Shown one piece after another: positions 1 to 20,302 of a stretch of 64,000 nt of DNA. The DNA lies in the IMG/VR virus record IMGVR_UViG_3300025009_000056. One strand, 5' to 3'. Below the pieces are notes generated by a model that saw only the letters and a program-made list of their open reading frames with translations, had not been told where the DNA came from and ran no database searches. This DNA comes from a virus (taxonomy: Duplodnaviria; Heunggongvirae; Uroviricota; Caudoviricetes). How positions within the stretch are numbered: position 1 is the first letter of the stretch; each line of letters begins with the position of its first letter. The position numbers and the translations under genes are program-made.

Positions 1-1831
1 CTCTCGAAAAAGTATTGAATTCATCATCTGTAATAAAATACTCTTTCCCCTTTACCTTGATAATCGTTCCGGATGTACCCGATGCGTTTTCGAATTCCTT
101 TTGCAGTTTTCCGAGACCCATTCCGCGATAAGTCACCCTACCAGCCTCTAACTCCTCCTTGAAATCAGGAATATCCTTTATTGATGTAACGATTACTCCG
201 CCTTTTTCAAACTTCTTTTCACCAACAATGCCATCATAATCCTCCATTGTCAAAACACCTTTCGACTTAGAGATATTGATGGCATTCTCGGTTACAACAT
301 GTAAATCCATGTCTGTTTTAGCATCCTCTCTCGAATACTCGAGCATACGGATAAAAAGCGGAACATCTACTGTTACGGAATCAACTTTATCTAATCCCGA
401 ATTAGCTTTTTTTTTTAAGCAACCGCCATTTTCAAAATCATCATCAAAATATTTTTCATTTATTTTAATTCCATGTTTTTTGGCAATGTTTGGATAATGC
501 ATAAGGTCTCCCTTGTTTTCCGCAAACTCCATATATCCATCAGTAATATCAATCATTTCAGATGGTTCCATTTCCATCTCGCCACCAGACATTCCCCTGA
601 ATAAAACATCGTAAACTTTTTTATCAGATTCACCTACGTGGATATTTGAAATAACAAGACCAACGAGACTGTAGTCAGGTGCGTAAACTAAATCACCAAT
701 ATTAAATTCACCACCAACACTGCCACCATCCTCGTATGCATTTCTGAAATAAATATCCGGCTCAGATGTCACATTGTAAATATAATTTCCACATTTCACA
801 AGCAGTGCGTCTTTGCCATAATATTTTTGTTTCATTCCAATAATACTTCCGGTACGGCTAAAATTAGGAAATTCACTCAATCCATATTTATCGCAATCGG
901 AAGCAGGAATAGTTTTTACTGGATAGTTTTTACCACGCTCATAACTACCAACACTACCACCATCTTCAAACTTAATAGTTCCGGATAATTTACCCAAGAA
1001 TGTAACGACTTTCTCGATTTTAGAAGCCTCACCAGCGGTTGCCAGTTTGTCAATAGAAACCAGAATCTTTGTGATAATATTTTTCAGCTTATCAGTTGCG
1101 CTAATTACGGCCTTATTTTCAACCTCGCGGCCTTTATTATCCGTCACTTTCGGCACGTCTTTCTGAATGGTCACAAATACGTTGTCAACCTTTTCTTTCA
1201 CGATAGCTCTATCCTGACGGATTTCTTTACGCTGAATGGTTCGCTTGCCAACCTTAGCTGAGATAACATTGTAGTTCGCCTCTTCGAGAATGTTTTTCAC
1301 GTTACCCATTTCATCCGTAGGACGAACGGTTACGTTAATAGTCTTTTTATCAGCTGATTTTTTTACAACGATAACTTTCTTGGCCTCTGTTTTTTTAGGC
1401 TCCTCTTTTTTCGGTTCAACCTTTTTGACCTTTATTTCTACCTTTTTGGGTTCGGCTTTTTTCGGCTCCACCTTTTTTGGTTCAACTTTCTTGACCTTGA
1501 TTTGGACTTTTTTCGGCTCCACCTTTTTAGGCTCTTTTTTTTCCTTTTCGGCAACAGCTTTTTTACGCTCCTCAGCGGGTTTGCGTTCAACAACGGTTTT
1601 TCCAGCTACGGCAGCAGGGGATGTTTTCTCCACCAATGCATACATATGGTTAGCGATTTTCTCCTCAGCCTCCATCTGTACCTGAAGCTGCGCTAATCCA
1701 TCTTTTGATGTAATTGCGCTAAAATCTTTCGATACACGGGCTATCGCAGACTCAATATTCTTTTTTAATCCCTCATTCTTTACTTTATTCAGGTCTATCT
1801 TTTTTAAGATTGCCAGAGCTTTATTTTCCAT
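1..1831 (-). CDS. Large multidomain protein, N-terminal >610 aa (gene runs off left edge of window); Lys-rich KVEPKK tandem repeats and four [FY]E[DNK]GG motifs
   Basis: ATG = rc of 1829..1831; manual minus-strand translation MENKALAILKK... continues without stop to position 1 (frame check: rc of 2..61 reads IKVKGKEYFITDDEFNTFSR); absent from ORF track only because no stop inside window; contains IKFEDGG, YEDGG, FENGG, FEKGG. Confidence 0.55.
   Translation of the reverse strand, partial: MENKALAILKKIDLNKVKNEGLKKNIESAIARVSKDFSAITSKDGLAQLQVQMEAEEKIANHMYALVEKTSPAAVAGKTVVERKPAEERKKAVAEKEKKEPKKVEPKKVQIKVKKVEPKKVEPKKAEPKKVEIKVKKVEPKKEEPKKTEAKKVIVVKKSADKKTINVTVRPTDEMGNVKNILEEANYNVISAKVGKRTIQRKEIRQDRAIVKEKVDNVFVTIQKDVPKVTDNKGREVENKAVISATDKLKNIITKILVSIDKLATAGEASKIEKVVTFLGKLSGTIKFEDGGSVGSYERGKNYPVKTIPASDCDKYGLSEFPNFSRTGSIIGMKQKYYGKDALLVKCGNYIYNVTSEPDIYFRNAYEDGGSVGGEFNIGDLVYAPDYSLVGLVISNIHVGESDKKVYDVLFRGMSGGEMEMEPSEMIDITDGYMEFAENKGDLMHYPNIAKKHGIKINEKYFDDDFENGGCLKKKANSGLDKVDSVTVDVPLFIRMLEYSREDAKTDMDLHVVTENAINISKSKGVLTMEDYDGIVGEKKFEKGGVIVTSIKDIPDFKEELEAGRVTYRGMGLGKLQKEFENASGTSGTIIKVKGKEYFITDDEFNTFSR
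1380..1560 (-). repeat. Tandem ~30-bp coding repeats (KVEPKK/KVEIKV units) in partial giant gene
   Basis: Repeated '...ttttttcggctccacctttttnggntc' units on + strand; encodes KKVEPKKVEPKKAEPKKVEIKVKKVEPKKEEPKK. Confidence 0.6.
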
Positions 1832-1864
1832 TGTTATTTATTTTACGTTCTTATTTTTTATTTC

Positions 1865-1905
1865 AGACTACAAAGATAATGCATTGAAAATTGAAATGCA
1901 AGTGT
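1865..1905 (-). promoter_or_regulatory. Putative Bacteroidetes-type promoter (-7 box TATCTTTG) upstream of partial giant gene
   Basis: rc of 1871..1878 = TATCTTTG (TAnnTTTG), ~39 nt upstream of ATG 1831; CTTG ~20 nt further upstream. Confidence 0.4.
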
Positions 1906-1924
1906 TTTTTTAATTTATTGATTA

Positions 1925-4900
1925 TCAATCTCCCATTTCCATTTCTAACTCCAATAATTCAAGTTCCTGTTCCTGTCTTTCACGCTCCGAATTCATCAGT
2001 TCTAAAAGAGCCTTTTCCTCAGACGAAGCGCCTGTTTTGGTTTCTTTTTTAATTTCAGAAACATCCTTACGCTTACTTCTATCCGGAACATCTATCTGGT
2101 TGAACATTTCGAGCGCCAGTTCTAAATTAAAAAAATATCTTTTTAATTCCTCGCTACCTTGCTTGAGACCTCTATGTATAACATTTTTAACGCCAGCGAA
2201 CGAGAATAATTTACGCTCCAAATCCATGAGTATATCATCTGTTATAACAGAATCCTTGTGTTTGAAAAAGAAATCTGTAAAACCAGCGTTGTTAATCTGT
2301 TTTAACAGACCTCCATTATAATCCATCGTGCGTTTAAGCTCGGATAATTCCTCTAGAAATCTATCTGTGCTATTCCATATTGTCTCAATGAATTTCTGAT
2401 TGCCTTGCTTCATCGGATTAAGATGATATTCTGAAAACAAATCAGATAATTCCGTCAGCTTGTTTATAAATCTTTTACCAAGATAAGAAACATTGTTCTC
2501 CTTATCCGTTAAAACTATTTTATAATCACCATCTCTTTCAACAAATTCACCAATTGTAATAACATATTTTCCGATTGTTCCGTCACCAGCAATATAAATC
2601 AGATTGTTTTTATCACCGCCATACTCAATGTATTTTTTGGCAGCAATTAAAAAGCTGGGTATTTCCTTTTCGCTATATATGTAATTATTGCCAATAATCC
2701 AGACGGAAACATAATCCTCCTGTTTCACATGGTACTTGTCATAAACAATGTATTCAAGAGCCTCATACCCCTGTTGGTGTTCATCGAATCGGGTTATAGG
2801 AATAATATGATTGCTTTCCGTAGAAATCATAACATATCCTATTTTCGACTCCATATCTCTTACCTCAGACTCGGTTTTGCCCTCAATGTGTTGTGGTGAA
2901 AAATACTCTTTATAATTTTCAGGCCACTCATTTAAAATTTCACCACGCCAGCCTCTAATATCAGAAAAGTCACCAACGATTTTATACAGGTGTTTTATCT
3001 CATCCGGAATACTGAATTTCTGAGGATACTGCCTATCTATTTCACGTTGCATATTCTCACCTTGCTCAATAGCCATTTTCGTTATATTATCAACAGCGGT
3101 TTGCGCTTTCATTGCCGAAATATTCTTTTCCGCTTCCGCTGACTCTTTTTTCCCTTCATCAATAACATCTTTTCTCGCTTTTGATTGCAAATATTCGGTA
3201 TGCTTTCTTAATTGCTCCGGAGTCTCGATTCTTTTTTCTTTCACGTACTGTTTGCCAAGTTCCCCTATCTGACCCAAATAATGATACACCTGAATATACG
3301 CCATTTCTCTGCCGGAGTACATGGAAACGATTTTAACAATCCCGTCTTTAACATCACTCGTATTTGTCGGCGTTGGTAATTTCAGATAATCTATTACGGA
3401 TTCATCTTCTTTGAGCTGCAATGCGGAAACCACATCATCATAACGACCCGTCTCCGGATTTATCTTTTTCCAGATAAGAAATTTTATATTTTCATCTTGT
3501 TTGTATTTCTCAAACAATTCCTTTGCCTCGTTTTCTGAAAGTCCTAAAAATTCAGAGGCCGGAGTTCCATCATCATAGGTAATAAAAATACCATTTACGT
3601 TTTCATCCGCGCTCGTTTCGGTTTCCGTTATAGTTTCCGGTTCATCATCGGTTTCACGCACACCCTCTTTGTCAATAACCACAAGTCTCGCATTTGCTCC
3701 GGTTGTAGCATACAATGATTTATCTGTAAACGTACCCTCCGGTAATTTTTCAACATATGCACCCAAGCTATCAATCCACTCCCTGAATTCAACAGCTTTT
3801 CTATCACTGCCGGAGAAAATACCCTCGCCAACAATCGAAACAACTTTTCCGTTCGGCTTCAGTAATTCATATGCGTGTTTCAGGTGTTCAGCATCCATCC
3901 TGTTTGAGAACGGCGGGTTCATAATAATACGGTCGTATTTCTTTTCGTTATAATCCAAAAAGTCCGAGGCAACCAGATTGTACCCTTTTTCTTTTAATAT
4001 CTCAGCCAGCTCACCACTTATTTCGCAAACATCGGCCATAATTCCCGTTTTATCACGAATAGCATCGGCAATATTACCGTTTCCGGCACTCGGCTCAAGA
4101 AAACTCATTCCGGCTTTAACATCGGCCATATCGACCATTTTTTCAGCACCGGATTTCGGTGTCGGAAAGAAATCAAATCCCACTTTCTTACCAGCTAACT
4201 CGCGCTCCAACTGTTTTACCCTGCTGATTTTCTCTACACCACCGCGATATTGAACGAATTCACGCAATAAGGCTCTGAGCATTTCATCACTTTCCACTCC
4301 GAGAGAAACAAGCCGTTTGTGACTTTTCGCAAACTCTTTCAATCGTGATGTCTCCCAACTATCGGGAACTTTTTCAGCAAACTCCATGAAATCATCTAAC
4401 TCCTGCTTATTTTTTATCTTATAATATTCACCGCTACCTTTCAGGTATTTTTTGATTTTACCAGCAATATTTTTCAGTCCGGACTTATCCTCATTCTTAT
4501 TAACCGCATCCATCCATCTTTCTACATATACTTTAGGATAAAACAAATAATGCTCATCCACGTAATCAATAGCCTCTGGTGTTATCGGGTCGTATTTATG
4601 CTGTTCTTGCTCAGGGTAAGACTTATATTTACCCATTCTGAATTTATAAAAAGCATTGGTGACAATCTCGTTTAACTGTTCAATCTGTGCTTTCGTTCTT
4701 ACGTTATCAAGATATTTCGTTTCACCGGATTCTATCGCGTCAGCGATATTAATCATTGTTTTCGCAATAGACTTTTCAGTATTCAATTTCGATTCGGTAT
4801 TGCTTGCCATAGAAGCACGTCTGGCAGTGTTCGTCACCCTGTCTTTTGATAATTCATTATCAACGCGCTCTATTATACTTTCAGCATTCTGTCTAAGTTT

Positions 4901-7900
4901 ATCGGCTCTCTTTTCTTTTTTCTCCTCTTTTTTCTCTTGTACCTTTTCTACATTCGACACATCACCGTGTTTAACGGCAATAAATTTTTCAGCTTGCTCC
5001 CTTTCGGTAAACTGAAATCCGGCAATAGCACCCTCACGAGCATAACTCGAGTAATAACCACCAAGTTGCTTTGCGCGTTTATTCAATTCGGTGTACACAT
5101 CCTTATCAACTCGCTCCGATAACTTAACAACAAATAATGGCGTTCCCTTTTTTGTATGTTTCGTTTCGTAGATATTCATCTCCACGCCCTCAAGTTCGAC
5201 TTGCTTAACAACGGCTTTACTTTCTTCCTCGCGCTGCTGCTTTTCTTTTGTTTGTTGCGCAATCAGTTCGTCATACGCTGCCGACTGCTCCGGAGTCATA
5301 CCCTCTTTGCCTTTCACACGAATGAGTGTTTGGAAATCCTCAAGTGTTACAGGGTTTTCGATAGCTAACTTTGCTTTTTCAACATCAGCGATTCTTTTCG
5401 CGCGGGACTCTTTTATTTTTGCAGCATAATCATCCAGTGACTTTTGTGTTAATGATTCCACTTTATCTTTTACACCCTTAAACGGGTCGTCACCAAAATT
5501 CATAGTATATGAACCGAGTGCAAAGAAGTCTACGACATCAGTAACAATAGCCCTTATAGCCGCTTCTTTTTTCTCTGATTTATATCGGTACGCCATCATT
5601 CCACCAAGCAGCTTCAGTAACGCATCTTTTTTAAGCGGCTCTAATTCAGCTGTTAATTCGGACTGGCTTTCGAGTGCGCTGTAAAAAGCGGCTTTGAATT
5701 CATCTATTGTGATTTCACCATCGTATGTTCTTTTTACGATGTCCTTGTGTTTTGCTAATGTGTACTTTCCGGTCATTGGTATTTGATTTTTTTTATCCAA
5801 CTCTATCAATTCAATATTCAATACAGGATACAATCTTTGCATCTCGCTAAACTGAAAATGGTTTACCTTTTCAATGTTATCACCTACAACCAAATCAAGT
5901 CTTGATAATTTTTTTAAAGCTGGAGTTGAATTTACTCTTTTCAAAACTGCATCGTTTGGAATTATTATTTTAACAGTTTTTAGATTACTTTTTTCTAATT
6001 TATTATTTTCAGCCACCTTCTTTTCTTCTTTAATATCGTCTTTATTATCACTTTCCTCGACAAATCCATACGCAGTTGTTCTAATAACCTCTTTCACCAA
6101 ATCGCCAGATGAAATATCGTCATAATCCAACACAGTACCATCAATCGAAAGAACTCGTCCGTCAGCCCATTGGTCATAAACGTTGGTTATATTAAACCTT
6201 ACATTGCCAACGACTTTTAAGTTTTCAGAATCAATTTGCAACAACACGAATGTATCGCCAACTTTAACGTTTTCAATTTTTACAACTGGTATGTTTTCCC
6301 AGAACTCAATCTGCTTTTTTGTTCTGACAAGGTGTTGTTCCTCTTTACGAATCTCATTATTCAAACTTTCGGCTATCTGTTGTTTAAATTTATCATGCCA
6401 TATTCTCCTGTTTGTTTTTTTAAATCCGGCAAACTTAAATAAGCCGCGCTCCGTAACAAGGTAATCATCCACCTTATATCCGTAATCTTTTATCAATACC
6501 GGACTAATACCAAAACCCTGAATGATAAATTCACGAACATAGACATCCGTGTTATCAGGATTCATCATTTTCTCAATATACGACCGTTGTAATTCAACTT
6601 TTTTATTAATATCATCATCACTCATTGTTTCACTTTTTTCAGTAACGACCGTTTCAATGTTTTCGTTCAAAGCTGGAGCGGTCTGCTTATCATCAACTAT
6701 GTTTACTACATCATCTTTTACAACTGGCTCAACTTCCGACTCAACAACTACAGCGGCTTCAACAACCTCTGTTTTATCATCATCTTTAAAATCAATATAT
6801 TCATCCTGACGCTCTTTTGAAAACGCAACAAAATCACCTATCGACATACTGTTTTTAACAGACTCAAATAAAGCGTCAAACAAAACAGATATTTTTTCCA
6901 ACTCCGCACCCTGCGGGTAAGGCATTTTGTCGCCCCATTTAGCCCAATTATCCTTGTAAGAAACGAGATAATTATTAACACGTCCGGCCTTTTCGAGTTT
7001 TAATTGAATATAAGCCTCAAAAGCGCGAGCGGCAAGCTCTTGACTTCTCACCCAATATTCACTTTTAGCAACATGGTTTGAATCGTAATAATATTTTGAT
7101 GAATTATAATGCATATCCACATCAATATATTCAAGTCCAAATTTATATGCAATGTATCCAAAAAAGTTTACAGTGCTCTTACCATCAGCCATACTTCCAT
7201 TCCTATATCCACTATACTCCTTTTGTGCCACCTCTATTGCTTTTTCAGCTGTGTCAGCGTAAACTCCCTGATACTTAATGTCCGACTGAGCGTAATATCT
7301 CACCTTTTTAAAGAATCCACCATCACCCTTATTTATATAATCCATCAATGCTTTTGCGGAATTAGATACCCCCGCACTCTCATTGTATGACGTAAACACG
7401 CTGGTTATAAAACTATACGTTCCCCCATGTTGGTCTTTTTCAGCGACCATATTATCAAAATAATGGAACCATTCGTGAGCCACACTACCATCACCTCTGT
7501 TTTTCGAAAGGTTTATCGCTTTTACTGATGGGAAATATGTAGCCATGTGTCCACCAACGCCCATTGTGGCAAAGTTTATATCAAGTCCACCAAGACTATT
7601 AACCTTAGCCATATCAATGTTCAGTATTTCAGATAAATCAGTTAAAGCGCCAAGAAAATGCCTTACATGCGCTCTACTGAATTCATCATTAAGAGCTTTT
7701 CCAAAAATAACATTTTTGAAACCAAAATATTTTCGAATATTTTCTACAGAAACCTCCGGAGATTTAATACCGCCAGTTCTTTTTATGTACGCAAGCGGTA
7801 TTTTCGTGTTTATCTTTGGTGCATTCGCATCTTTATCGCCGCCTTTTCTTTCCGCTTTCTGTTCATCAGTCCACGACCAGTCATCCATGCGAATTTTATA

Positions 7901-10900
7901 TTTTTCCGGTATATTAGAACCATCCTTGATTTCAGTAATACTACTCGTAGAACTCGTTATACTGTTTGAGAACACTGACACTACCTCTTGCTTGAATTTA
8001 TCAAAAGAACCTTTAATATAAGGCGATAGCTTGTAATATAAATCCTTGTCTCTATTTTTCAACTCGTCGTATGAATTCAATTTGTTTATATCGGATATTA
8101 CCTTACTCGCTCTGTCTATATAATTATTCAAAGATGCAACACGTGTGTCAATCCAAGCATCCTGCTCCTCTTTAGTGAAGGCTGAATAACCAACTGCTTT
8201 TTTTCTATCTAAAGCAGCTGAATCAGACCTGTTTTTACAAAAGTTTTCAAATCTAACACCAAAAATACCTTTTAACTTCTCAGCCCTGCGCCAATCATCT
8301 GAAGACCAGCTGCGCTTTTTTTCCTGCTCCGACAAGTCACCTACAAACAGGTCTTTTCTATCAAGAAAACCCCTCAATGCATCATCTGTCTGTTCGTAAG
8401 AGTAACAATTATTAAGCACCTCTATCAACTTTTCAATTCCATTCACGTACACCTTTCTCGCATCAGCGCTATCAAATGGTCTCGCCGCCATTGCATCCCT
8501 ACATTTCACCTTCAGATAAGTTGCTCCGGATGAATAGCCTTTTTCCTTTTCGTCGGCGGGTACATATTCCTGCCACACTCTCGATTTTTCAACCATCTTA
8601 TAAGCTATCACACTATCCTCTTCCACCTCGTCGAGATTCTGTGATGACACAAGATTATAATTAACTTTATATTTCTTCGTGTATTTTACAATTTCTGTAT
8701 CCTTAAATTCTTTGCTTTCCTGAGATTTTATAAGACGCTGTTTTACCACCTCTCCTATCTTTTCCCGACCACCATCAACACCACCGCCGTCCTCAAATCT
8801 AATATCCGGATTATTCGGGTCAAAGTCACCATTGTTTTCAGTTGCGGACTTTATTTGGCTTGGTAAAAAAACGACAATTTCATCTCCATCCAATGATTGC
8901 ACTATTGCATCATGCCCTTTATTTTTAATAGCGTCGGTAATAGATTCGTACCTCGTCATATATCCCTCCGCATGATAATTCGCTTTAATACCCTCGTATT
9001 TTTCTATTGCCTCAATAATTGCATACAACTTAGCCTCGTTTTCAGGCAAACTCACATGCCATCTACCAAAATCATCAGTATCATCCCACTCGTGTATTTT
9101 TCCCTCACTATCTGTAAATGAAGCCTTTTTTGTTTTTGATTTCGCATAAGCAAATAAAATACTTGGCTTACCGCCATCGTAAGCGGTTTCAATAATAACG
9201 TCTTCATCATATTTTTTAAACAACTCCGGAAGTACACTTATGCCAACATAAGATATTTCGTATGAGTTATCAACTCTATTGTACTTACCTCGCTTCTCTA
9301 AAACTATCTCATTTGATATTTCCGGAAATTTATCAGCAATATTTTTCAGGAACACTACTGGCTCGTGATACATTGAAAATGTTCTAATTCCATTATATTC
9401 CGAAAGCGAACTCATGTCAAATGGGTTGTCGGTTTTCACATAAGCACTAATTATCCTATTTCCATAATAACCAGCCTCACCCCTTGCCGCCGATTGCCAA
9501 CTTGGGTCTGAGTTGAATGTAAAATAAAACCCTCTTCCGTAAAAGCCTCTATCATTAGCACTACCTATTTCGCTCGCACTAAACTGATGAAAATCACTAT
9601 TGGTTCCATGATAAACTACTATTGGGCGTAACTGCGCATCTATCATTTTACTATCACCAAACCATCGCCAGAAATTTTCAATCCCCGCAATTGTTTCATG
9701 AATTAATTTCCCAAGATTATTACGTGTCGGTCTTTCAACGCCATCAACCATAATAGTTTCCGGAATAACAGCGCCACCATCCTCAAACTGACTTTCTGCA
9801 TTCTGCATTTTTGACAATTCGGCAATCTTTTTCTCCTGTCTTTCTATCCTTTTCTTTAAATCATATGTTGAAGCAGCATAAGTTCTATCAAACCCAAGCT
9901 CTTTTAACCTATTCCGCATCCACGAACTATAAACACACTCCTTTCGTTCCTCGCTTATTTCTAAAACAGGCTCCATTTGCCTATTTTCATAATTAAACTC
10001 TTCTGATTCTTGCAAACACCACGCATCGCCCATTTTCCAAGTAATACGCCCTATATGTTCATCATCACCTCTTTCAATTTCCGGCTTTGGCATTTTATCA
10101 ACCAACGCTTTCGCCTCATCGAGTTTTCTATTTTCTTCCTCAATAATACTCAGTTGTAATTTTTGTTTAGCTAATGTTTTCAGCGCGGTAACGAGATTTG
10201 GGAAACTCTTCATCTGCTTTTTATCCAGATACCCTAATAAAACAGGAACAGACTCAGAGCTTGCGGTAATAATTTCACCATCTGCTTTTCTGATGTAAAA
10301 CTTATGCACAATCTGCCGTCCGGTTTCATCGCTTAATTCAGCATTACTCCAATCAGATTTTCTATAAGGAACCAATTCACCCTCCCAGTTGGGTCTCTCA
10401 TCCCACTCATAAGACCACAAGTAAGAAGTAAGCTGATTTCCATTTCGACCAATAATAGGCGGCTCGAATACTGTTTCCGAATAAGGCTTAAACCTACTAC
10501 TCGAACCAACAACCTTACTGAATTTCGCTGGCTTCAGTTCTCCACCATCCTCAAATTCAGGAATATCAACACTCAAATCATCGAGAACAATATCGTTAAT
10601 AATATCGAAATTGAATTCAGTGAATAAATCATCCTCCTGCATAAAATACGATTGCACACCTTTATCAACAGAACTCAATTCGTATGAGTATGACTTTATA
10701 ATTCCATCCACCCACTCAAAAACAAACCTTTTAAGCGTAACCGTATACAATTTACTATTGAAATCAAACAATACCGTTCGCGGGTCATTTTCCGGAAGCG
10801 TTATATCAAAATCGCTTATCATGAAAATGTTTTTCACATGCTCGACAACCTCTCTACGGAAATAATCTATTACAATATCCTCCGGAGTTGGTGCATCCGA

Positions 10901-11074
10901 CATAAAATATTCAAGCACGGTATAATCACCGTACTTATCAAATCGGTCGAATATCATATCGAGAATTTTATCCTCTATTTCTCTATCTTTGTAATCGAAC
11001 TTTGAATAAACAAGTCTGATTTCTCCGGTTTCCTCTATTCTTACCGGATATGCGATATATTTCATGAATTCCAT
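1925..11074 (-). CDS. Giant (3049 aa) multidomain polyvalent-type effector protein: H-Y-E ADP-ribosyltransferase module + HEWFH zincin peptidase + N6-adenine DNA MTase + coiled coils
   Basis: Uninterrupted 9.15-kb ORF; ATG at 11072..11074; motifs VVYHGT...GFYGRGFYFTFN (DT/PARP-like), AHEWFHYFD (HExxH), FLEPSAGNGN + NPPF (amino-MTase motifs I and IV); FEDGG x3. Confidence 0.8.
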   Translation of the reverse strand: MEFMKYIAYPVRIEETGEIRLVYSKFDYKDREIEDKILDMIFDRFDKYGDYTVLEYFMSDAPTPEDIVIDYFRREVVEHVKNIFMISDFDITLPENDPRTVLFDFNSKLYTVTLKRFVFEWVDGIIKSYSYELSSVDKGVQSYFMQEDDLFTEFNFDIINDIVLDDLSVDIPEFEDGGELKPAKFSKVVGSSSRFKPYSETVFEPPIIGRNGNQLTSYLWSYEWDERPNWEGELVPYRKSDWSNAELSDETGRQIVHKFYIRKADGEIITASSESVPVLLGYLDKKQMKSFPNLVTALKTLAKQKLQLSIIEEENRKLDEAKALVDKMPKPEIERGDDEHIGRITWKMGDAWCLQESEEFNYENRQMEPVLEISEERKECVYSSWMRNRLKELGFDRTYAASTYDLKKRIERQEKKIAELSKMQNAESQFEDGGAVIPETIMVDGVERPTRNNLGKLIHETIAGIENFWRWFGDSKMIDAQLRPIVVYHGTNSDFHQFSASEIGSANDRGFYGRGFYFTFNSDPSWQSAARGEAGYYGNRIISAYVKTDNPFDMSSLSEYNGIRTFSMYHEPVVFLKNIADKFPEISNEIVLEKRGKYNRVDNSYEISYVGISVLPELFKKYDEDVIIETAYDGGKPSILFAYAKSKTKKASFTDSEGKIHEWDDTDDFGRWHVSLPENEAKLYAIIEAIEKYEGIKANYHAEGYMTRYESITDAIKNKGHDAIVQSLDGDEIVVFLPSQIKSATENNGDFDPNNPDIRFEDGGGVDGGREKIGEVVKQRLIKSQESKEFKDTEIVKYTKKYKVNYNLVSSQNLDEVEEDSVIAYKMVEKSRVWQEYVPADEKEKGYSSGATYLKVKCRDAMAARPFDSADARKVYVNGIEKLIEVLNNCYSYEQTDDALRGFLDRKDLFVGDLSEQEKKRSWSSDDWRRAEKLKGIFGVRFENFCKNRSDSAALDRKKAVGYSAFTKEEQDAWIDTRVASLNNYIDRASKVISDINKLNSYDELKNRDKDLYYKLSPYIKGSFDKFKQEVVSVFSNSITSSTSSITEIKDGSNIPEKYKIRMDDWSWTDEQKAERKGGDKDANAPKINTKIPLAYIKRTGGIKSPEVSVENIRKYFGFKNVIFGKALNDEFSRAHVRHFLGALTDLSEILNIDMAKVNSLGGLDINFATMGVGGHMATYFPSVKAINLSKNRGDGSVAHEWFHYFDNMVAEKDQHGGTYSFITSVFTSYNESAGVSNSAKALMDYINKGDGGFFKKVRYYAQSDIKYQGVYADTAEKAIEVAQKEYSGYRNGSMADGKSTVNFFGYIAYKFGLEYIDVDMHYNSSKYYYDSNHVAKSEYWVRSQELAARAFEAYIQLKLEKAGRVNNYLVSYKDNWAKWGDKMPYPQGAELEKISVLFDALFESVKNSMSIGDFVAFSKERQDEYIDFKDDDKTEVVEAAVVVESEVEPVVKDDVVNIVDDKQTAPALNENIETVVTEKSETMSDDDINKKVELQRSYIEKMMNPDNTDVYVREFIIQGFGISPVLIKDYGYKVDDYLVTERGLFKFAGFKKTNRRIWHDKFKQQIAESLNNEIRKEEQHLVRTKKQIEFWENIPVVKIENVKVGDTFVLLQIDSENLKVVGNVRFNITNVYDQWADGRVLSIDGTVLDYDDISSGDLVKEVIRTTAYGFVEESDNKDDIKEEKKVAENNKLEKSNLKTVKIIIPNDAVLKRVNSTPALKKLSRLDLVVGDNIEKVNHFQFSEMQRLYPVLNIELIELDKKNQIPMTGKYTLAKHKDIVKRTYDGEITIDEFKAAFYSALESQSELTAELEPLKKDALLKLLGGMMAYRYKSEKKEAAIRAIVTDVVDFFALGSYTMNFGDDPFKGVKDKVESLTQKSLDDYAAKIKESRAKRIADVEKAKLAIENPVTLEDFQTLIRVKGKEGMTPEQSAAYDELIAQQTKEKQQREEESKAVVKQVELEGVEMNIYETKHTKKGTPLFVVKLSERVDKDVYTELNKRAKQLGGYYSSYAREGAIAGFQFTEREQAEKFIAVKHGDVSNVEKVQEKKEEKKEKRADKLRQNAESIIERVDNELSKDRVTNTARRASMASNTESKLNTEKSIAKTMINIADAIESGETKYLDNVRTKAQIEQLNEIVTNAFYKFRMGKYKSYPEQEQHKYDPITPEAIDYVDEHYLFYPKVYVERWMDAVNKNEDKSGLKNIAGKIKKYLKGSGEYYKIKNKQELDDFMEFAEKVPDSWETSRLKEFAKSHKRLVSLGVESDEMLRALLREFVQYRGGVEKISRVKQLERELAGKKVGFDFFPTPKSGAEKMVDMADVKAGMSFLEPSAGNGNIADAIRDKTGIMADVCEISGELAEILKEKGYNLVASDFLDYNEKKYDRIIMNPPFSNRMDAEHLKHAYELLKPNGKVVSIVGEGIFSGSDRKAVEFREWIDSLGAYVEKLPEGTFTDKSLYATTGANARLVVIDKEGVRETDDEPETITETETSADENVNGIFITYDDGTPASEFLGLSENEAKELFEKYKQDENIKFLIWKKINPETGRYDDVVSALQLKEDESVIDYLKLPTPTNTSDVKDGIVKIVSMYSGREMAYIQVYHYLGQIGELGKQYVKEKRIETPEQLRKHTEYLQSKARKDVIDEGKKESAEAEKNISAMKAQTAVDNITKMAIEQGENMQREIDRQYPQKFSIPDEIKHLYKIVGDFSDIRGWRGEILNEWPENYKEYFSPQHIEGKTESEVRDMESKIGYVMISTESNHIIPITRFDEHQQGYEALEYIVYDKYHVKQEDYVSVWIIGNNYIYSEKEIPSFLIAAKKYIEYGGDKNNLIYIAGDGTIGKYVITIGEFVERDGDYKIVLTDKENNVSYLGKRFINKLTELSDLFSEYHLNPMKQGNQKFIETIWNSTDRFLEELSELKRTMDYNGGLLKQINNAGFTDFFFKHKDSVITDDILMDLERKLFSFAGVKNVIHRGLKQGSEELKRYFFNLELALEMFNQIDVPDRSKRKDVSEIKKETKTGASSEEKALLELMNSERERQEQELELLELEMEMGD
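3850..4250 (-). other. gamma-class N6-adenine DNA methyltransferase domain within giant protein 1
   Basis: FFPTPKSGAEKMVDMA...FLEPSAGNGN (motif I) ... RIIMNPPFS (motif IV; NPPF = rc of 3908..3919). Confidence 0.7.
7200..7700 (-). other. Zincin-like metallopeptidase domain (HEWFH) within giant protein 1
   Basis: rc of 7463..7477 = CAC GAA TGG TTC CAT (HEWFH) preceded by GDGSVA; HExxH zinc-binding signature. Confidence 0.5.
9420..9640 (-). other. ADP-ribosyltransferase-like domain (diphtheria toxin/PARP H-Y-E class) within giant protein 1
   Basis: rc of 9604..9615 encodes YHGT (cf. DT 'SSYHGTKPGY', PARP 'LLWHGSR'); downstream GFYGRGFYFTFN resembles DT 'WKGFYSTDNKY' / PARP 'GYMFGKGIYFA'. Confidence 0.55.
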
Positions 11075-11128
11075 TTAAAAACTGTTTAATTTTTACGCCT
11101 GCAAATATACGATAATTTACGTCTGAAA

Positions 11129-14100
11129 TCAATTGTTTATTTTATCAAGGTATTCCTTTATCTTGTCTATATTTTCTTTTGATTTACTTATTTTATACCT
11201 GTAAACATAACCAGCATCGGAATATTCGTTAGTGAACGACACGCCTGTTTGTTTTAAAAGGTTTGTGATTTGCTCTTTATCATTAGAACCACTGGGGTTA
11301 AAAATAACAGCCACACCTATTCCGTATGTAGTTGGATAAACATTTATTGAGCTTCCGGAATGCCCACTTTTTACAAGAATATCCTTAAAGATGACAGAGA
11401 AATCTTTATATATTTTCTCCTTGTTTATTTTATCCGAAATCCAACTCGCGGTGATAAGACTTCTTGTTTTTGGCAGCCTTATACTCTTTAACGACACACC
11501 ATCTATCCATTGTCCATCAATAGACCATCCGAAAGTAATCTCGCTCGCTTTCGGCGATTCGAGTTCCACCTCGTTAGTATATTCATCGTAAACATTTACG
11601 CTAACACCAAAATAATCCTCTATTTCCTTCGCACTTTCGAATGGTTTTTCTGATTCAATTTTGCCACCTTTTTCTTTCTTGCTTACCAAATCAGGATAAT
11701 CAGCCAGAACTTCTACCGGAACAGGCTTACCATCAGCAATTGCTTGTTCAATCATTTTTTTATGTGAGCCGTATTTGTATTCGTCAAGCGTTGCCATATG
11801 CTTTTTAACATAAGCCATACCGTCAGCCTGAATAGCTCTCTTTCTCTCAGCGCTCCATCTTTCTGCTGCTGTCATTTCCCACGCCTCTTTTTTATCAATC
11901 GAATACGGAGCAAGATATTTATCCCGTGTCAACTCTCTATCAACACTATCTCCATGACCCCAGTTGGTTTCTTTATCTTTCACATACTTATCCACAGCAG
12001 CCGCTATCTGCTCCCTTGTAAAACCACCATTGTAATCTTTGGCATACAATCCTTGTTTGCCATAAAATTCAGACATGTAATCAATAAAGTCGTTTATCTC
12101 GCTTTGGGTAGGCTTTGCTTTACCCGAATTAGAAATCATTTCCTCACCATCACTCATTTCAACCTCCAGTAGTTCAAGCTCCGATTCCTGTCTTTCGCTT
12201 TCAGATGATAAAAGTTGCAGTAACGCCATTTCCTCAGCCTTTTTCTCTGCCAACTCTTTTTGCTTTGCTGACATTTTCTTACCAGCCTTTTCCTGTTGGG
12301 CAATAATACGGGCAGCATTCTTTTCGGCTAACAAACGCTCTTTTTCATCGAGTTCCGCTTTTTCATCAGCAATTCTTTTTTCCTCAGCCAATCTGTCTGC
12401 TTCCTCTTTATCTTTTCTTGCTTTTTCAGCTTTTAACTCCTCAGCTTTTTGACGTACTAAATCCTCTTTCAATTTTTTCTCAGCGGCTCGTTTGTTTTTC
12501 TCAGCCTCACGCTTATTGATAGCCTCTATCTGCTCACGTGACTCATCTTTTGCTCGTGTGATTTCTTTTTGCAAACGTTCTTTTTCAACATCAGCATCCT
12601 TCTGTAATTTTTTCTTCGTCTTACCTATCTCGGTGTTAACGAGTCCATCCGGAGAAATATCAATAGACTCAATGCTTTCACGATTAACCACCTTAACGGT
12701 CTCATCATTACAGTCGAAACAAGGATAATCTAAAATCTCTACAGGTATATCGTATCCCTCAATGTGAAGAGGCATAACCAATACAAATGGATTTTTTAAA
12801 CTACGGGCATCAGCAGCACTACCAACTGGCATGAATAATAATCCACGCTTGTTTGTTGAACCGGATATTTCAATCTTATCATATCCAAGTCGCTTCATGA
12901 ATGTAGTGGCTTTTATTAAATTCTCACTTGATACTTTAACAACCAATTCATCTATTTTAATCACAACACCAGCAACTCCGGCTTTCTGAACGATTCCAGA
13001 TTTATACATTGCGTTTGCAAATATCTCAAGACTGTTTACATTAATAATGTTTCTATTATTATTGTTCTGAGGAAGAACACCAATATACTCCGGATACCTT
13101 GTTTTATCAGAATCATTTCCGCTTTTAATTTCGCCACCATCGGGAATATCATATGTCTCAATGCAATCTTTGGTCAAACAGAAATTACCTTTTTTAGAGA
13201 CCTTACCGTTTATGAAAGCTAAAACATTTGCATTTGTTGCAGAGACACCATGCTCATCAAATCTTATAGCTTTCAGAATATCCCTCGCCACACTATCTTT
13301 CGTGGCCGCGAAATCGTCCATAATATTAATCAGGTTCTTATCTGATGGGTCGAGCTTATAGGAAAGCGGTCTAACATCTGATTTTTTCTTAAATTTTTCA
13401 GGGATAAATTCAAAAAGATTCAGGTTGCTTTCGGCAAATATTTCATAGAACAATGTTTCATCAGTCTTATCATATGCATACGTTATCCAATTATACATAT
13501 AATCGTCTTTCACCATTGTCTTTGAAAGTCCGGCTTTCTCCAATAGGTCGTAATATACTGACAGTTTTTCAGGTTGTTTTGATTTTATCACAACCTCAAT
13601 AATAAATTCAGCCAGTGTACCAACAACAGTGTTACTTGTATCTCCGTGCTGTACATTGAAGTATTTCTTATCTTTTGTCTCGTTATAATTGGAAAGAGCT
13701 TTTTCAAAACGCTCTAAAATTCCAGCCTCATATACGGGGTCTAAATATGGCTTTTCCTCTCCCGTATCGGAAACAGGCTGTTTAAACTCCGCTATTTCTT
13801 TTAGACATGCAATTTTAAATTCCTTAAGAGATTCTTCAGCTCCGGAAACATTACCATCCTTATACTGTTTTATTGCTTTTATCAATATTTTATTTGTAGG
13901 ATGGAAGTTCATATCTCTGAGACTTTCCGTAAGTTTTTCGAGCTTTCCTACTCCCCAAGACAAACTGGCTTTCGCGCCAGTGTTGAGCATGTCCATTGTT
14001 GGAAAATCTTCCTCATACTCCATTCCAAATTCATATCGGCCAACAGGATTTGAATCCTCCTTATCTTTGTTTTTATTCATTTGCTCATCTTTTATTTCAT

Positions 14101-17100
14101 TATTTTCGACACCAATATTTTGCTCCTCACTGATAACTGGAACAACTACCTCCTCTGTCAAAACAGGCTCAAATCTATTCGTGACATTTGCATTTGGATA
14201 TTTTTCAAGAATCCACTTTTTCAACTCACTCTCGATTGCACTAATTCCCGATTTTGCAACAGGAACTTTTTCTCCAACGATTGCGGAAATAACCTCTTGT
14301 CTTTTCTGTCTATTATGGTCTCCGGATAAATTATATATCAAATCCCCTATAGCCCGATAGTCTTTTCCGGCTTTCACGACCTGCTCGTCAACCATTTTCA
14401 CAAACGGATGTGGATACTCACCTTTCACAACATCACCATTCTCAAATTTATCTTTATATAGAATGGCTACATTTTTCAGAAAACCAAATCCATATTTCGA
14501 CTTAATGTAACTAATATCATCATCTATTACGTTGTCGTCAACCTGCGCAACATAAGAACCTCTGAAAATAATAAAATATTCACCGGATTTACTATGCTTA
14601 ACAATGCTGAAATACTCCTGAATTTCCAAATCCTCGAAATCTGATGAATTCCACCAATCACCCGTTATTTTATGAATCTGTGTTGAAAGCGGATTTCTAT
14701 CGGAGATAACAATTACTGTTGCGCTTTTCTGCACATCACCACCATTTTCAAATAATTCACCATTACTATAGTCTCTGCTTAACACTCCTATATTTCTGTC
14801 ATGCTCCGCCTCAAAAACAACATCTTCTACATATTGCGAACCCCATGAGGCTCCCAACTCCCAGTTACCCTCATCATCCATAAAATAATGACGGCCAAAA
14901 TAATAAACAGGGTTTTGTTTTTTCTCGAAAACAACTTTATTATTGTTTTCAAAATATATCGTTCTTTCTTTTTCCACATCCTCCCTCGTGAATGGAGTAT
15001 TAATATCTCTCACAGCACCACCGTCTTCGAACATGGTTATTCCGGCCATCTGTACCTGATTCTGGTCAAATAAACTCATACTGTTATCGTTTTCAATTGT
15101 ATCCTGAATAATATTACCCTCATTATTAAGCGTTTTGTCTATATTTTCACCAACAACATCACCTTTGTCAAATTTCCAGTATTCAGTCTTCAAGCTAATT
15201 CCAACTTTATTTTTGTAAATTGGATTTTTATCCACACGGAATTTATCGACATAATCAGAGCTATTAAAATCACTGATAAACAAATCAGCTTTTTCCGCTG
15301 ATTTCATATCAAGCACCCTTCTTGCTACGGAATTCTCTTGCATTTCTTTAAAAAGATTTCCCCAAAATGTATTAATCTTGCTTTTCCTATCATCCAACCT
15401 TCCACCATCCTCAAACGGCAAATCCAACGTGTTATCCCTAAACATTTGTTTGAGCTTATTCTTTTTCGCGTTCCAATTACTTATATCATATTCATCCCAC
15501 TCGCTCACTGGCTTGCTATAAAGGTAATTCGTCTCATCACCAACCGCTCCAAGAAGTCTATAAACACTATCCTGTGTTGGCACAACTCCACCATCTTCCA
15601 GAATTTCGCCGTTTGGTTTTATTGCGCCTTTCATTTTCTCATCAATTAAATTATTTTCCTTACTCGATTCAATCAAACAATCACAATCAATAGCTTTTCC
15701 GCCGCCATCCTGATTTATTTTCGACAACTCCTCGCAATGCATCTGTGCTGCTTTTCTGGTAATAACAATCTCAGCCTGCTCGATTTCTATCGGCTGTCCG
15801 GTTTCTTTCACCACCATTGGGATGCCGTCATTTGTATGCAGCTCTCCATTATACGCAGCGCCACCATCGGCTATACTGTTATCGTCCTGAAGTGTAATAT
15901 TGTTTACTGAATCGCCCTTTTCCATTTTGTTTGATTTATTGTTTACTAAATTCATTTCTGTGTCATTATTTTTTTCACCATCATTAATATCTACAACCGA
16001 GTCCTCTTTAATATCAAATATTACACTACCATAAGAACCGGAATCCGGATTTGCATCACCCTCTTTTACCGGAATATTTCTAACATCAATCCCCTCATAT
16101 CCCAACGCTTTCAGAATAATAGTTGCCGATGTATCCACGATATTTGTTCCGTCAGACGGCTGCTCTAATCTATTTTCCGCTTTCACTGAATTTTCAAGCA
16201 GCGATTTTATTATTTCATCTTTTTTCGCTGTCAACTCATTCTTAAATTCGGAAATAAAGTCACTGAATAAAGAGTATTCTTTTAATTTCGAAATCATTGA
16301 ATCCCAATCGGAATAAACCCTATCTGCGCTGACAATATTAGGAGTCTGACTTAATGCGTTTTTAATCCAGAAATAATCAGAACTGTTTGACGGCCTTAGC
16401 AAATTATACTGAGAGAAATCAACTGCTTTTACACTTTTCTCTCCGGTTAATCTATTTCCGCGTTGCATTGCTGGCTCAATGGATGAATAGAAATAATATC
16501 CGGTGAAAGGAACTGATGTGCCGCGCAGTGTACTACCAATACCCTCAGCCTTTTTATATAAATCACCACCGTGATAACCCAAGTTGTCAACAGAACCACC
16601 GTCCTCAAATTTTATATATTTGACAACGGATTTAAACTTATCGTATTCCCTTTGTTTAATCGGCTCGCTTATTCCAAAATTTTCTTTTAGGTATTCAGAC
16701 ATTTCACCAATGCCCATGTTTTTAATATCGTCAATAACCGTTTTGTATTCAGAATCACTCAACTCCCTAAAAACGATTACCGGAATAGTCTTTGCGCCTA
16801 AACTCTTTGCGGCCAGCGCCCGATGTCTTCCCTCTTGTGATTTACCGCCAATGGTTAAATATGGTATTTCAAATAAATCACCAGCTTTCATTAATTCAGC
16901 AATTTCTATTACATTATCATCGGAAACATACTGCATATTTTCACCAGTCGACAAGAAAAATCCTTTTGAAACATCATACATGTATTCATCCGGAGTCATT
17001 TCAACTATTTTTGCAGTCTTTGACTTTTCCGTAATAGCATAAAGTGGCATATCAAATTCGACATGCTTTCTTTTCGCATCATCGTAATCCCAGTTTATTT

Positions 17101-20100
17101 CAGTTGAAACATTGCCACCGTTCTCAAATCTAATATCCGGATTTTCGGCATTGAAAGTGGTGTTCGTTCCGTCTGCGAGTTTTATTTGGGTTGAATCAAA
17201 ACAACTTATAATAGCACCTCTATCCCAATGGTTGAATTTTATTCCATCGTAATTATTCCCTCTTAATATTTCAGAAACATCATCATTAAAATAATCGTTG
17301 TTTATTGATTTAACCTCACTTATCACATCACTTGGACTTTCACCCTCAACTATGAATAGTTTTCTTATATTTAAAAACACAGGTAAAATCGTTTTCCCAT
17401 ATTCTTTAAATTCATCTTTACTTATGGAAAAATAGAACCCTCTTCCCAACCACCCTATCAATTGCTTTTGCTTGTCAAACTCATATATTTTTGCTTTAGC
17501 CCTATTGTAAACCACCAATGGCTCTCCATTGGAATCTACAACTTTACTCGCGTTTTCTGGGTCGTTAATCCAGTCACCAAACCACGAAAGAAACTCTGGT
17601 GTGCGGACTAATTCATATTGCTCCGGAGTCAGGTTACTCGTTTTCCCGTTAGGTGCAACCATGCCACCATCCTCCATTTCAGCAACAGGGCAACCAACAA
17701 CAGCTTTTATACCATCGGTAAATTCAATAGTTCTAAAACTTTCCTCATTAAATTCACACGGTTCCACCTGACGAAATCTGTATGTGTTTTCTTTTTCGTC
17801 AACATCGGTTTTATATCCGTGTTTTTTCAACCACGCCTTAGCTTTCTTCAGTGTAAAATTGTCTTTTGAAAACAAAAGAGTTTGCACCTTTGTGCCAACC
17901 GGACATTCTACAAAACCACCCTGTTCAAATTTATCTTTGAGTGTGTTTTTAATTTCAGCTTCAGACGGAGCGGCAATAACTTTTCCGTCCGGTAATCTCA
18001 AATTCTGAAACCTGCTCGGATATTGATAAAAAGGGTTTCCATATTTCGAGAAATTAATAATTATCTGATTTGATAATGTAAACGAAATATCGGAGCCGTA
18101 GTTAAAATAAATGTCTTGGTCTTTTCTTTTTCCGGAGCTTTCAACATTCAATAAATCATCATTTGCACCGAGGAGTAAATCGGATAATTTGTCATACATC
18201 TTATTCTTGTAAGATGAAATATCCATCGTTGATTTTTCATCAGATATTTTCTCGATTAACTCATCAGTGTTTTCAAGCTGATATATATTGTGCGCACTAT
18301 TTTCATCCTTAACGAATGTAAACGGCCTGAGAGCATATCTGATTTCTCTATTTCTCTCGAAATTGTTTTTATCATTAACATTCAATGGGTAAAGAATGTC
18401 AACATTATTCGTACCCTTTCCAACAATCTCTTTCTGAAATTCAGAAATAATATTGTTATACATTCTTTTGTACGATTCTTTTATTTCTAAACGGAAAGCC
18501 TCAGCGACCTCATCTATTACGCGCTTTATTTTCGGGTTTATCTTTCCGGTTACTTCCTGAATTCGCTTTTCCTCTGTTACGCTTTTAGGCTCGCGTTTTA
18601 CAATGCGGCCTTTTATCAGCTTTAATTTCTCGGCTACCTTACGCCTTAATTCCGTATTTCTATCGGGAGTGTTATAATAGTCGTATATTTCCCTCTCGTA
18701 CTTATTCATTGCCTGAATATCCGACTTTTTTAATTTACCGCCCCAATGCAATTCATTTAGTATTGTGCTATTTCCATTGACGGGAGTTCCCTCTTTAAAT
18801 AGGAAGTCATGCAGGTTTTTATATTCCAGATTGTCACGGTGAATAATATCCCAAGCAAAGTCTGAAAAACCTTTTTTCACAACGAGACTGACTTTTTCGC
18901 TGAAAGCACGTTTCATTCTATCGTAATCAGCCTTAATAAGCGTGTCTTTTTCTACGTCAAAGTCTAGAAATTCATTTATTGCATTAACATACTCTTTTGG
19001 TGCTCGTTGTTGCATTGCTCCAATAACAACAGCCCTTTCGTCGGTGGAAATAACGCCACCGTCCTCAAATCTAATATCCGGATTTTCGGCATCAAAAGTT
19101 ACATTTGTTCCATCCGCGAGTTTTATTTGTTCCGGATAAAACGCCACGTATTGATTGTTTATCAATTCTTTTATCCCTCTTTCTCCGAATAGGTTAATCC
19201 AATAGTTTTTATCATCATCATTTAATGGCTCTATAAAATAACCATCATGGTTGTCTTTTATCAACTCATCCCTTAAGATTTCAGGACTCGTACTCGTCAT
19301 CGTCCATTGGCGAGCATTTACTGTTTTCGGGGTTTTTATAGACAAGAAACAATCAATTACCTTTGAACCTTTTTTCAACTCACTCTTTTCCGCCAAACTC
19401 CACTTATACCGCGTAAAATCCTCGGCTAAACTTTTATTATTTGTAAAATAAAAACCCATTTTACCCCAATCCGCACCAGTCTGCTTGGTTGCGTGTTTTA
19501 AAGAGAAAATAGTAAAATCTTTTACAGTTCCATGATAAACCACCAACGGCTCTCCATTGGAATCTACAACTTTACTCGCGTTTTGTGGGTCATTAATCCA
19601 ATCACCGAACCATGCTTTAAACTCGGGTGTACGGACTAATTCATATTGCTCCGGAGTCAGGTTGCTCGGTTTTCCATTGGGAGCCAGCAACACATCATCA
19701 TTCTTTTTACGCGAAATTTTAAAATCAACCAACGTGGGCTGTTTTCTTACAGGTCTCTTTTCTTTCGGCAAGTCATAATATTTCAATCCGAACTCCATCA
19801 GATTGGCATAAATAATTTCTTTTTGTTTCTGAAAATCCGACTCATTCTCATGTTCCGCTATCAACCCTTTTTCAATCGCATCGTAAATGACATTGGTTTT
19901 CATTTGCGGAATACCGTATTTTTTCGCAACCTCATCAATACCCATCTTGTCGGAAATGGAATATATCTTTTGTCTGAATTTAGCCAGATATTTTTCCGGA
20001 CTTTTTTTCACCACGATGCTTTTTCCAGAATCGCGTACAATATCTTTTTTACCCATAATGGATGCAACAACGCCACCGATAACACTGAGCGGAATAACAC

Positions 20101-20179: not shown

Positions 20180-20204
20180 TATTTTCTTTTTTATTATAAG
20201 GAAT

Positions 20205-20245: not shown

Positions 20246-20302
20246 TTTATTAATCAAACAGTAATTTTACACAGGCCGCTACTACACATTCGCTAAACGC
20301 AC

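Follow-up and report, generated by a model that had tools for sequence, protein, structure and literature searches.

A recurring aromatic-x-x-Gly-Gly connector at predicted module boundaries of giant phage polyvalent proteins

Results and Discussion

Three giant genes and a recurring peptide motif

The 64,000-nucleotide stretch of phage DNA examined in this study (IMG/VR record IMGVR_UViG_3300025009_000056, class Caudoviricetes; its full length is referred to as the window) contains three consecutive giant genes on the minus strand, g2, g1 and g3 (Table 1), whose products are punctuated by a short recurring peptide motif of the type FEDGG, which is the subject of this report. The full 1000-residue g3 sequence and the g2 gene call were taken from an exact-protein match on a 194-kb metagenomic contig (ENA ERZ28564009, scaffold_178); in that public call g2 encodes 3016 residues from an ATG at 20179 (MGSLKF...), 26 codons downstream of the TTG at 20257, and the ATG is likely the true start. 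Pfam identified ART-PolyVal domains twice in g2 and once in g1 (1e-32 and 8e-15), LPD1 in g1 (3.5e-19) and LPD11 in the part of g3 that lies beyond the window edge, and PHROGs identified a large methyltransferase region in g1; because of these domains, the three products can be assigned by sequence to the polyvalent proteins as defined by Iyer et al. (2017; PMC5512222). They are also very large multi-domain proteins (3042, 3049 and 1000 residues) encoded beside phage-type genes (RecT, exonuclease, NAMPT), and the HEWFHYFD zincin of g1 is homologous to a region of Stx-phage giant proteins. No close relative among cultured phages was found by megablast or tblastn, and the clade hosting these genes seemingly consists of uncultivated large phages, mostly environmental or aquatic.

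An earlier note on this DNA, made from the sequence alone, had listed copies of an [FY]E[DN]GG motif in all three giant proteins. Its 16 listed copies were all recovered, in frame within the three large open reading frames (ORFs) of the minus strand and within about 40 bases of the positions given, and the copies in the window are confined to g1, g2 and g3. The recurrence therefore stands; the count of about 19 copies was a slight overcount, as the window holds 16-17, and two listed copies, YDIPDGG (13124..13144) and KKEKGG, are present in degenerate form, while one copy, KFEQGG (17909..17929), was absent from the list. In total, nine connector copies occur in g2, three in g1 and four in the windowed part of g3, to which the full-length protein adds FEDGG at residue 786 and FSNGG at residue 874, both outside the window. 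Over 6,701 residues, there are 12 copies of the strict form [FY]E[DN]GG, where 0.025 would be expected (maximum 2 among 2000 shuffles), and 16 of E[DNK]GG, where 0.58 would be expected. The motif also extends beyond what had been described, to Phi-E-[DN]-G-G-x-[VIL]; E-D or E-N is present in 15 of 17 good copies, and 16 of the 17 have Glu directly after the aromatic residue. Among the remaining 97 ORFs of the window (14,163 residues), the general pattern was matched 4 times versus 2.1 expected, and none of these matches has the E-[DN] form. A lone in-frame WEDGG at 44321 on the minus strand (…FYIIKWEDGGTNDIPIR) is located away from the giant proteins, where no ORF of 85 or more residues covers it.

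The copies are restricted to the N-terminal 25% of g1, 60% of g2 and 79% of g3, and the multi-domain C-terminal parts of all three proteins contain no connector; in g1, the three copies are followed by 2285 residues without one, a region that includes the zincin, LPD1 and methyltransferase portions. Codon usage over 16 copies (GAG/GAA 10:6, GAT/GAC 8:4, three Gly codons) is roughly that of the genes overall. Since synonymous codons vary, conservation acts at the protein level and not at the DNA level, which rules out a DNA-level signal.

A family-wide connector

Relatives were collected by a database search with g2, which returned 2460 matches, and the best 119 non-identical proteins (1.7-5 thousand residues, all with ART-PolyVal) were analyzed, a set chosen through the ART domain. 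Phi-E-[DN]-GG occurs 89 times in these best 119 of 2460 relatives, compared to approximately 4 expected. Across the 2407 GG dipeptides of the homologues, F, Y or M occupies position -3 in 47% of cases and V, I or L is enriched at position +2. The corresponding general pattern, [FYMLW]xxGGx[VILM], is present in 956 copies versus approximately 54 in shuffled sequences, with a median spacing of 185 residues, which is the size of a domain; the search of metagenomic phage giant proteins that the earlier note had suggested thus recovered the connector in all but 11 of the 119 homologues.

Outside the ART modules (796 copies), the consensus reads K-[FYM]-[AEK]-[KDN]-G-G-x-[IVL], with no conservation upstream of position -1. 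The aromatic residue, the Gly-Gly pair and the aliphatic residue are conserved across the family, and the residue after the aromatic is A in 25%, E in 23% and K in 18% of these copies. FEDGG is therefore this phage's version of an eight-residue connector, K-[FYM]-x-x-G-G-x-[IVL], whose variable positions are lineage-specific (E-D/N in this phage, A-K or A-D in others). Within-protein concordance at the two variable positions is 0.22 and 0.23, compared to 0.17 and 0.13 after permutation (permutation maximum 0.19 and 0.15), and the phage studied here stands at the extreme of this tendency. Relatives of g3 contain the connector in other flavors (MAKGG, FAKGG, YADGG), with up to 14 copies per protein, and include tandem pairs 6-10 residues apart with no domain between them.

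A recurrent mini-module of approximately 60 residues, 'G.x.E.EH ... IAxDHLxExPxYY', was observed in 17 of 138 homologues (P0004, P0022, P0031, P0040, P0084 and others), where it is often the first module and always has connectors on both sides. It is probably Pfam DUF5661. This DUF5661-like module (ExEH...DHLxExPxYY) was considered as a universal reader of the connector and rejected, as it is absent from g1-g3.

Connectors at module boundaries

The earlier note had placed the motif at module boundaries and stated that every ART module ends ...QIK.A....NPDIRFE[DN]GG. The latter holds for all three ART modules, and the former agrees with three kinds of evidence: the pile-up of alignment ends, two structure models and the termini of free-standing homologues. 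When 122 proteins were compared all-against-all by BLAST, a connector lay within 10 residues of 47% of alignment starts and 39% of alignment ends, compared to 8.5% at random; when every alignment touching an ART domain was removed, the values were 39% of starts and 47% of ends versus 9% at random. Judged from these alignments, the connector delimits units that have been shuffled in evolution. In addition, hydrophobic content falls just before and just after the motif (1036 instances).

Two AlphaFold2 models were examined, the first covering g2 residues 770-1235 (35-sequence alignment) and the second g3 residues 280-560. In the first model, the ART core has a predicted local distance difference test (pLDDT) score above 90, and connectors lie at query residues 8-14, 92-98, 275-281 and 448-454. 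Three of these are inside segments with pLDDT below 50 (1-31, 275-289 and 447-466), and the connector at 92-98 directly follows the low-confidence stretch 49-91, at the N-terminal border of the ART core; coil is predicted for the conserved ART tail, ...LADGTNTTFxxxNPDIRF. In the second model, confident domains at query residues 21-85 and 201-260 (pLDDT up to 97) are separated and flanked by low-confidence stretches (1-15, 86-172, 175-199 and 261-269) that hold the connectors at 9-15, 87-93, 187-193 and 262-268, the dip at 261-269 coinciding exactly with its connector. In both models, motifs are found inside or at the edges of low-scoring segments (pLDDT below 50) next to domains that score above 85. 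The mapping against AlphaFold models that had been proposed earlier therefore places the motifs in linkers and not, as its refutation would have it, in folded domain cores, and the connector is predicted to lie in unstructured linkers outside these cores. AlphaFold confidence is low for several modules because their alignments are shallow.

Modules as free-standing phage proteins

Four modules have free-standing small phage homologues whose termini coincide with the connectors. Residues 303-366 of g3 correspond to a free-standing ORF of 61-63 residues in Parabacteroides phage PF672P1 and in LoVEphage, and the end of PF672P1_00014 (61 residues; ...SEPEIYFNIAY, then the stop) aligns residue for residue with g3 ...SEPDIYFRNAY, directly before EDGG. 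The LPD11 module of g3 (residues 803-873) corresponds to an 85-residue ORF in Aeromonas phage Aeh1, whose last residue aligns with F874 of FSNGG. For g3 residues 476-536, 756 relatives were found, of which the best 120 are all free-standing proteins of 63-108 residues without the motif; the N-termini of these best 120 of 756 project to g3 residues 476-480, 6-10 residues after GG470. Finally, g1 residues 191-428 match a 351-residue ORF of Dolichospermum phage Dfl-JY45 from residue 2 of that ORF. Overall, the N-termini of the free-standing homologues start 6-12 residues after the Gly-Gly pair. Because of the positions of these termini, the aromatic residue can be read as the natural end of a module, with 'xxGGx[VIL]' and the few residues after it as the additional connector.

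The family of g3 residues 471-541 is very abundant, with one cluster of 148 members (consensus DKITVDVPLFIRLLEYAREDAKTDMDLH.VTEN), and is without annotation. Foldseek searches with the small modules returned matches to uncharacterized phage proteins only. When 140 proteins were cut at the connector, the resulting 1118 segments of at least 40 residues fell into 359 clusters, 254 of which are singletons.

Distribution of the connector

The connector is clade-specific and occurs in only a subset of polyvalent proteins. Copies at the level expected from shuffling (0-2) were found in the giant ART proteins of Bacteroides phage BF1-TP2 (gp68), Pseudomonas F116, Bacillus Dartukuta, Pseudoalteromonas Y7, Shewanella Y11, Tunturi_5 and crAss-like cr85; in Y7 and Y11, the only two in which the ART tail was located, it reads ...DDIRYSQS without Gly-Gly. 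Most of 80 loci from bacterial genome assemblies were likewise at shuffle expectation, those binned as gut Bacteroidales, Akkermansia, Treponema and similar taxa having 0-0.5 copies per 1000 residues, while the closest hits, binned with Ignavibacteria, Phycisphaerales, Sediminibacterium and Flavobacteriales, had 2.3-4.9 per 1000. These connector-poor homologues in cultured phages and gut-bacterial elements rule out the connector as a universal polyvalent feature. On two related contigs, the connector was found in the giant proteins only and not in neighboring genes.

A MoxR-like AAA+ ATPase gene (448 and 469 residues) followed by a gene for a protein of approximately 505-511 residues was observed beside connector-rich giants (contig L005, 19278-22163; contig L006, 5631-8625). 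The pair is conserved in two unrelated contigs (38% and 30% identity) and is without functional annotation. It was considered as a partner of the connector and set aside, being absent from the 64-kb window and without annotation.

Possible roles of the connector

The reading that we favor, at roughly even chances, is that the connector is a protease recognition site releasing cargo modules. Under this reading, the connector would link cargo modules, each folding independently, in the N-terminal portions of giant polyvalent proteins, and a sequence-specific endopeptidase would read it and cut the polyprotein at or next to it, the likely scissile bond lying between the aromatic residue and the residue after Gly-Gly. 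Each giant protein would thereby yield up to approximately nine separate small effectors, in the capsid or once injected. The giant proteins are probably packaged in the virion, an indirect indication being that mass spectrometry finds phi24B gp47, which is homologous to the zincin-LPD1 region of g1, in abundance in virions. Iyer, Burroughs, Anand, de Souza and Aravind (2017; PMC5512222) proposed that embedded zincin metallopeptidases divide polyvalent proteins into functional units, and named no cleavage site or linker motif. There are several reasons to favor cleavage. Eight conserved positions are more than a mere hinge would need, and hinges should occur between the C-terminal domains as well, where the connector is absent. 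The lineage-specific flavor suggests co-evolution with a reader, the free-standing homologues show that modules work as free proteins, and recurrent motifs between units are usually cleavage determinants, by analogy with MARTX toxins and the Gly-Gly sites of viral polyproteins.

Several observations weigh against cleavage. No peptidase family was present in the precomputed Pfam domains of 120 motif-rich homologues, and no protease was found in Pfam/PHROG scans of 20 window proteins. In 8 of 119 homologues, a full connector is followed by only 2-6 residues before the C-terminus (Poisson p=0.004), and a free-standing 442-residue ART protein ends shortly after a full motif (...IRFEKGGKL, then the stop); so close to the end, a connector would have no use as a cleavage site, whereas a binding tag would naturally lie there. 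Unprocessed packaged giant proteins are reported from other phages, such as the N4 vRNAP (cited in PMC5512222). In addition, a role of the g1 zincin is weakened because zincins of its type occur in connector-free Stx-phage giants, although a change of specificity is conceivable.

The terminal copies and the missing protease would be accommodated if the connector were instead an uncleaved linear docking or hinge motif, that is, a C-terminal tag by which each module binds a common partner (the capsid interior, the portal or ejection machinery, or a chaperone), or a small beta-turn joint that would let the modules pass as a chain through the tail. In favor of such a motif are the flexible segments in which it is found, the classic type I' turn of D/N-G and the tandem double motifs, which could work by avidity. 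However, besides the two arguments against a hinge given above, the free-standing homologues function without the tag, and no candidate partner was found, the AAA+/505-residue gene pair beside two related giants being absent from the window. We consider docking or hinging less likely than cleavage but a strong competitor. It is also conceivable that the motif mainly marks an evolutionary joint, with the border of a DNA or peptide cassette being carried along in recombinational module swaps and having no biochemical role. The coincidence of alignment ends with the motif, the extreme diversity of modules (359 clusters, 254 singletons) and the homogeneous flavor within a genome would all be expected from such a border; yet synonymous variation occurs at nearly every position, identical DNA runs extend to only approximately 8-11 nucleotides and are therefore too short for homologous recombination, and the amino acids are conserved across proteins whose flanks have diverged beyond recognition, which together make this explanation highly improbable.

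The proposal of the earlier note, that a prohead protease of the T4 gp21 or phiKZ type, or the zincin of g1 itself, cuts after Glu (FE↓DGG), fares no better and has a very small probability. Prohead proteases specific for Glu are known, nearly all copies of this phage have Glu after the aromatic residue, and the zincin motif HEWFH...D reported in g1 is indeed present and intact (7463..7477). However, an invariant Glu at the cleaved position is not found in the family, where A is about as common as E, and as Glu is not conserved, cutting of the T4 or phiKZ type does not fit. The would-be P3 residue, which directly precedes the aromatic and in this phage is R, K, E, I, P, M, L, Q, A or D, matches neither prohead rule: L or I occupies it in only 2 of the 17 copies, and S, A or G in only one. 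No prohead protease gene is present within the 64-kb window. As to the zincin, Stx2 phage 86 gp35 has the same signature (HEWFHSLDN) and zero motif copies, and most motif-rich homologues are without an HExxH of the g1 type.

Comparison with known systems

The proteins described here resemble the polyvalent proteins previously reported (PMC5512222) in being giant multi-domain proteins with ART-PolyVal, LPD1, LPD11, zincin and methyltransferase regions, and differ in that the connector, for which that work gives no counterpart, is present in a subset only.

MARTX toxins contain effector arrays that are freed by an internal cysteine protease cutting in inter-domain linkers. The likeness lies in one giant delivered chain with several effector domains and unstructured linkers containing a conserved cleavage determinant (putative here), whereas the determinant here is aromatic-x-x-G-G-x-aliphatic and not Leu, and delivery would be by the phage virion and not by secretion. 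No cysteine protease domain was found in Pfam/PHROG scans of g1-g3 or in the precomputed Pfam domains of the homologues, and many modules are without annotation. Papain-like proteases of eukaryotic viruses also cut at Gly-Gly sites, including potyvirus HC-Pro (YxVG↓G), coronavirus PLpro (LxGG↓) and the adenovirus protease ((M/I/L)xGG↓x). These sites are similar in having a hydrophobic residue 3-4 positions before Gly-Gly and in recurring between functional units; however, homology is lacking and no protease of the papain type was identified here, so that the resemblance is one of sites only. The prohead-protease sites of T4 (L/I-x-E↓) and phiKZ (S/A/G-x-E↓) are likewise short and recur in head-packaged proteins, and the copies of this phage contain Glu, but the wider family does not conserve it, and the P3 rule does not hold here.

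The cassette borders of polymorphic toxins, such as VENN in CdiA and DPxGL in Rhs proteins, occur once per protein, before a single C-terminal toxin. They resemble the connector as short conserved peptides demarcating highly variable, exchangeable modules, and differ from it in number, since up to 9-22 connector copies are present in one protein. Two further systems were rejected. Double-glycine leaders cut by C39 peptidases are single N-terminal leaders of 15-30 residues, unlike the internal and multiple copies here, which lack conservation upstream of position -1. Ubiquitin-like processing at a C-terminal Gly-Gly would call for beta-grasp modules upstream, and the upstream modules are instead unrelated to one another (ART, possibly ParB-like, helical bundle, LPD11; 359 clusters).

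Genomic setting and other features

The window has a GC content (guanine plus cytosine) of 37%, and almost all of its genes are on one strand. The coordinates of the giant genes, their domains, modules and connectors are given in Table 1. The g2 module ending at residue 1217 is possibly ParB-like, to judge from a GRHR motif and a weak Pfam match.

Table 1. Giant genes, domains, modules and connector copies in the 64-kb window.
Feature	Coordinates	Strand	Residues	Remarks
g2	11129..20257	-		3042 residues from TTG start; ART-PolyVal Pfam E=1e-32
g1	1925..11074	-		3049 residues; zincin, LPD1, methyltransferase region
g3	1..1831	-		N-terminal 610 of 1000 residues within window; starts at 1831, passes left edge
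ART-PolyVal domain 1 of g2	19094..19564	-	232-388
ART module 2 of g2	17138..17662	-	~866-1040	AlphaFold2 pLDDT >90
ART-PolyVal domain of g1	8822..9640	-	479-751
LPD1 domain of g1	6851..7069	-	1336-1408
Zincin motif HEWFH(YFD) of g1	7463..7477	-	1200
g1 module	9785..10540	-	179-430	Homologous to free-standing 351-residue ORF, Dolichospermum phage Dfl-JY45
g3 module	734..955	-	293-366	Core free-standing in Parabacteroides phage PF672P1 and LoVEphage
g3 module	209..421	-	471-541	Helical domain, pLDDT 86-97; core a very common free-standing phage protein of 63-108 residues
FEDGGVI	19049..19069	-	g2 397	End of ART module 1
FEQGGFV	17909..17929	-	g2 777
MEDGGMV	17657..17677	-	g2 861	ART module 2 begins directly after (MVAPNGK...)
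FENGGNV	17108..17128	-	g2 1044	End of ART module 2; low-pLDDT segment of first AlphaFold2 model starts here
FEDGGSV	16589..16609	-	g2 1217	End of possibly ParB-like module
LEDGGVV	15581..15601	-	g2 1553
FEDGGRL	15395..15415	-	g2 1615
FEDGGAV	15011..15031	-	g2 1743
FENGGDV	14732..14752	-	g2 1836	Last good g2 copy
PDGGEIK, degenerate	13124..13144	-	g2 2372	Without aromatic residue; doubtful status
FEDGGEL	10535..10555	-	g1 174
FEDGGAV	9767..9787	-	g1 430
FEDGGGV	8777..8797	-	g1 760	End of g1 ART module
FEDGGSV	950..970	-	g3 288
YEDGGSV	716..736	-	g3 366	Y366 aligns with C-terminal residue of PF672P1_00014
FENGGCL	416..436	-	g3 466
FEKGGVI	191..211	-	g3 541	Exactly at pLDDT dip (query 261-269) of second AlphaFold2 model

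Further features were observed in the giant proteins themselves. The C-terminus of g1 (1925..~2020, minus strand) is an acidic Leu/Glu-rich stretch, ...ERERQEQELELLELEMEMGD, directly before the stop; a similar stretch, ...ESERQESELELLEVEMSDGEE, is found at residues ~2690-2710 of g2 (~12130..12190), and the homologues P0027, P0045 and P0063 end in a comparable one (...ELALAMELELALIELELELE, then the stop). These stretches may serve the carrier part as a signal for packaging or ejection. Near its N-terminus (residues ~85-150; ~1380..1580, minus strand), g3 contains a tandem repeat rich in Lys, Pro, Glu and Val, KKVEPKKVEPKKAEPKKVEIKVKKVEPKKEEPKK, whose match to 'serine protease Do' was dismissed as spurious, arising from low complexity.

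The 44 kb to the right of the giant genes looks like an early or replication region, and no structural genes were found there or elsewhere in the 64-kb window. Minus-strand genes in the window encode a RecT-like annealing protein (22698..23720), an SMC/AAA_23-like protein of 580 residues (25769..27511), an exonuclease VIII-like protein (29086..30087), a radical SAM/DUF5131 protein (36660..37463) and an SPFH/Band 7 protein (51843..52823). Additionally, nicotinamide phosphoribosyltransferase (40511..41992, minus strand; PHROG E=4e-209) and ribose-phosphate pyrophosphokinase (42010..42864, minus strand; 1e-83) are encoded; both are NAD+ salvage enzymes, in a phage whose giant proteins hold three NAD+-consuming ADP-ribosyltransferase modules.

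Implications

No description of the connector was found in PMC5512222 or in full-text searches for the motif strings and the names of polyvalent-protein domains. Polyvalent proteins are a large reservoir of phage counter-defense enzymes whose cutting into functional units has been predicted since 2017, and the connector, recognized here from sequence, is the first concrete candidate for the site at which they would be cut into effectors; it can be mutated, sought in proteomics and used as bait for the protease. Whether or not it is cleaved, it serves as a parsing tool for giant proteins. Several segment families match abundant free-standing small phage proteins without an assigned function, and the connector links these small ORFs to virion-delivered arsenals.

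Tentatively, and with somewhat less than even confidence, we suggest that a clade of large environmental phages delivers true polyproteins, in which up to approximately 9-20 unrelated small anti-host effectors, joined in a single virion-packaged chain, would be freed by a dedicated Gly-Gly-directed protease reading K-[FYM]-x-x-G-G-x-[IVL]. If this is true, it would represent a bacterial-virus counterpart of the polyprotein processing of RNA viruses, and the connector would provide a sequence ruler for dividing thousands of giant metagenomic proteins into functional units.

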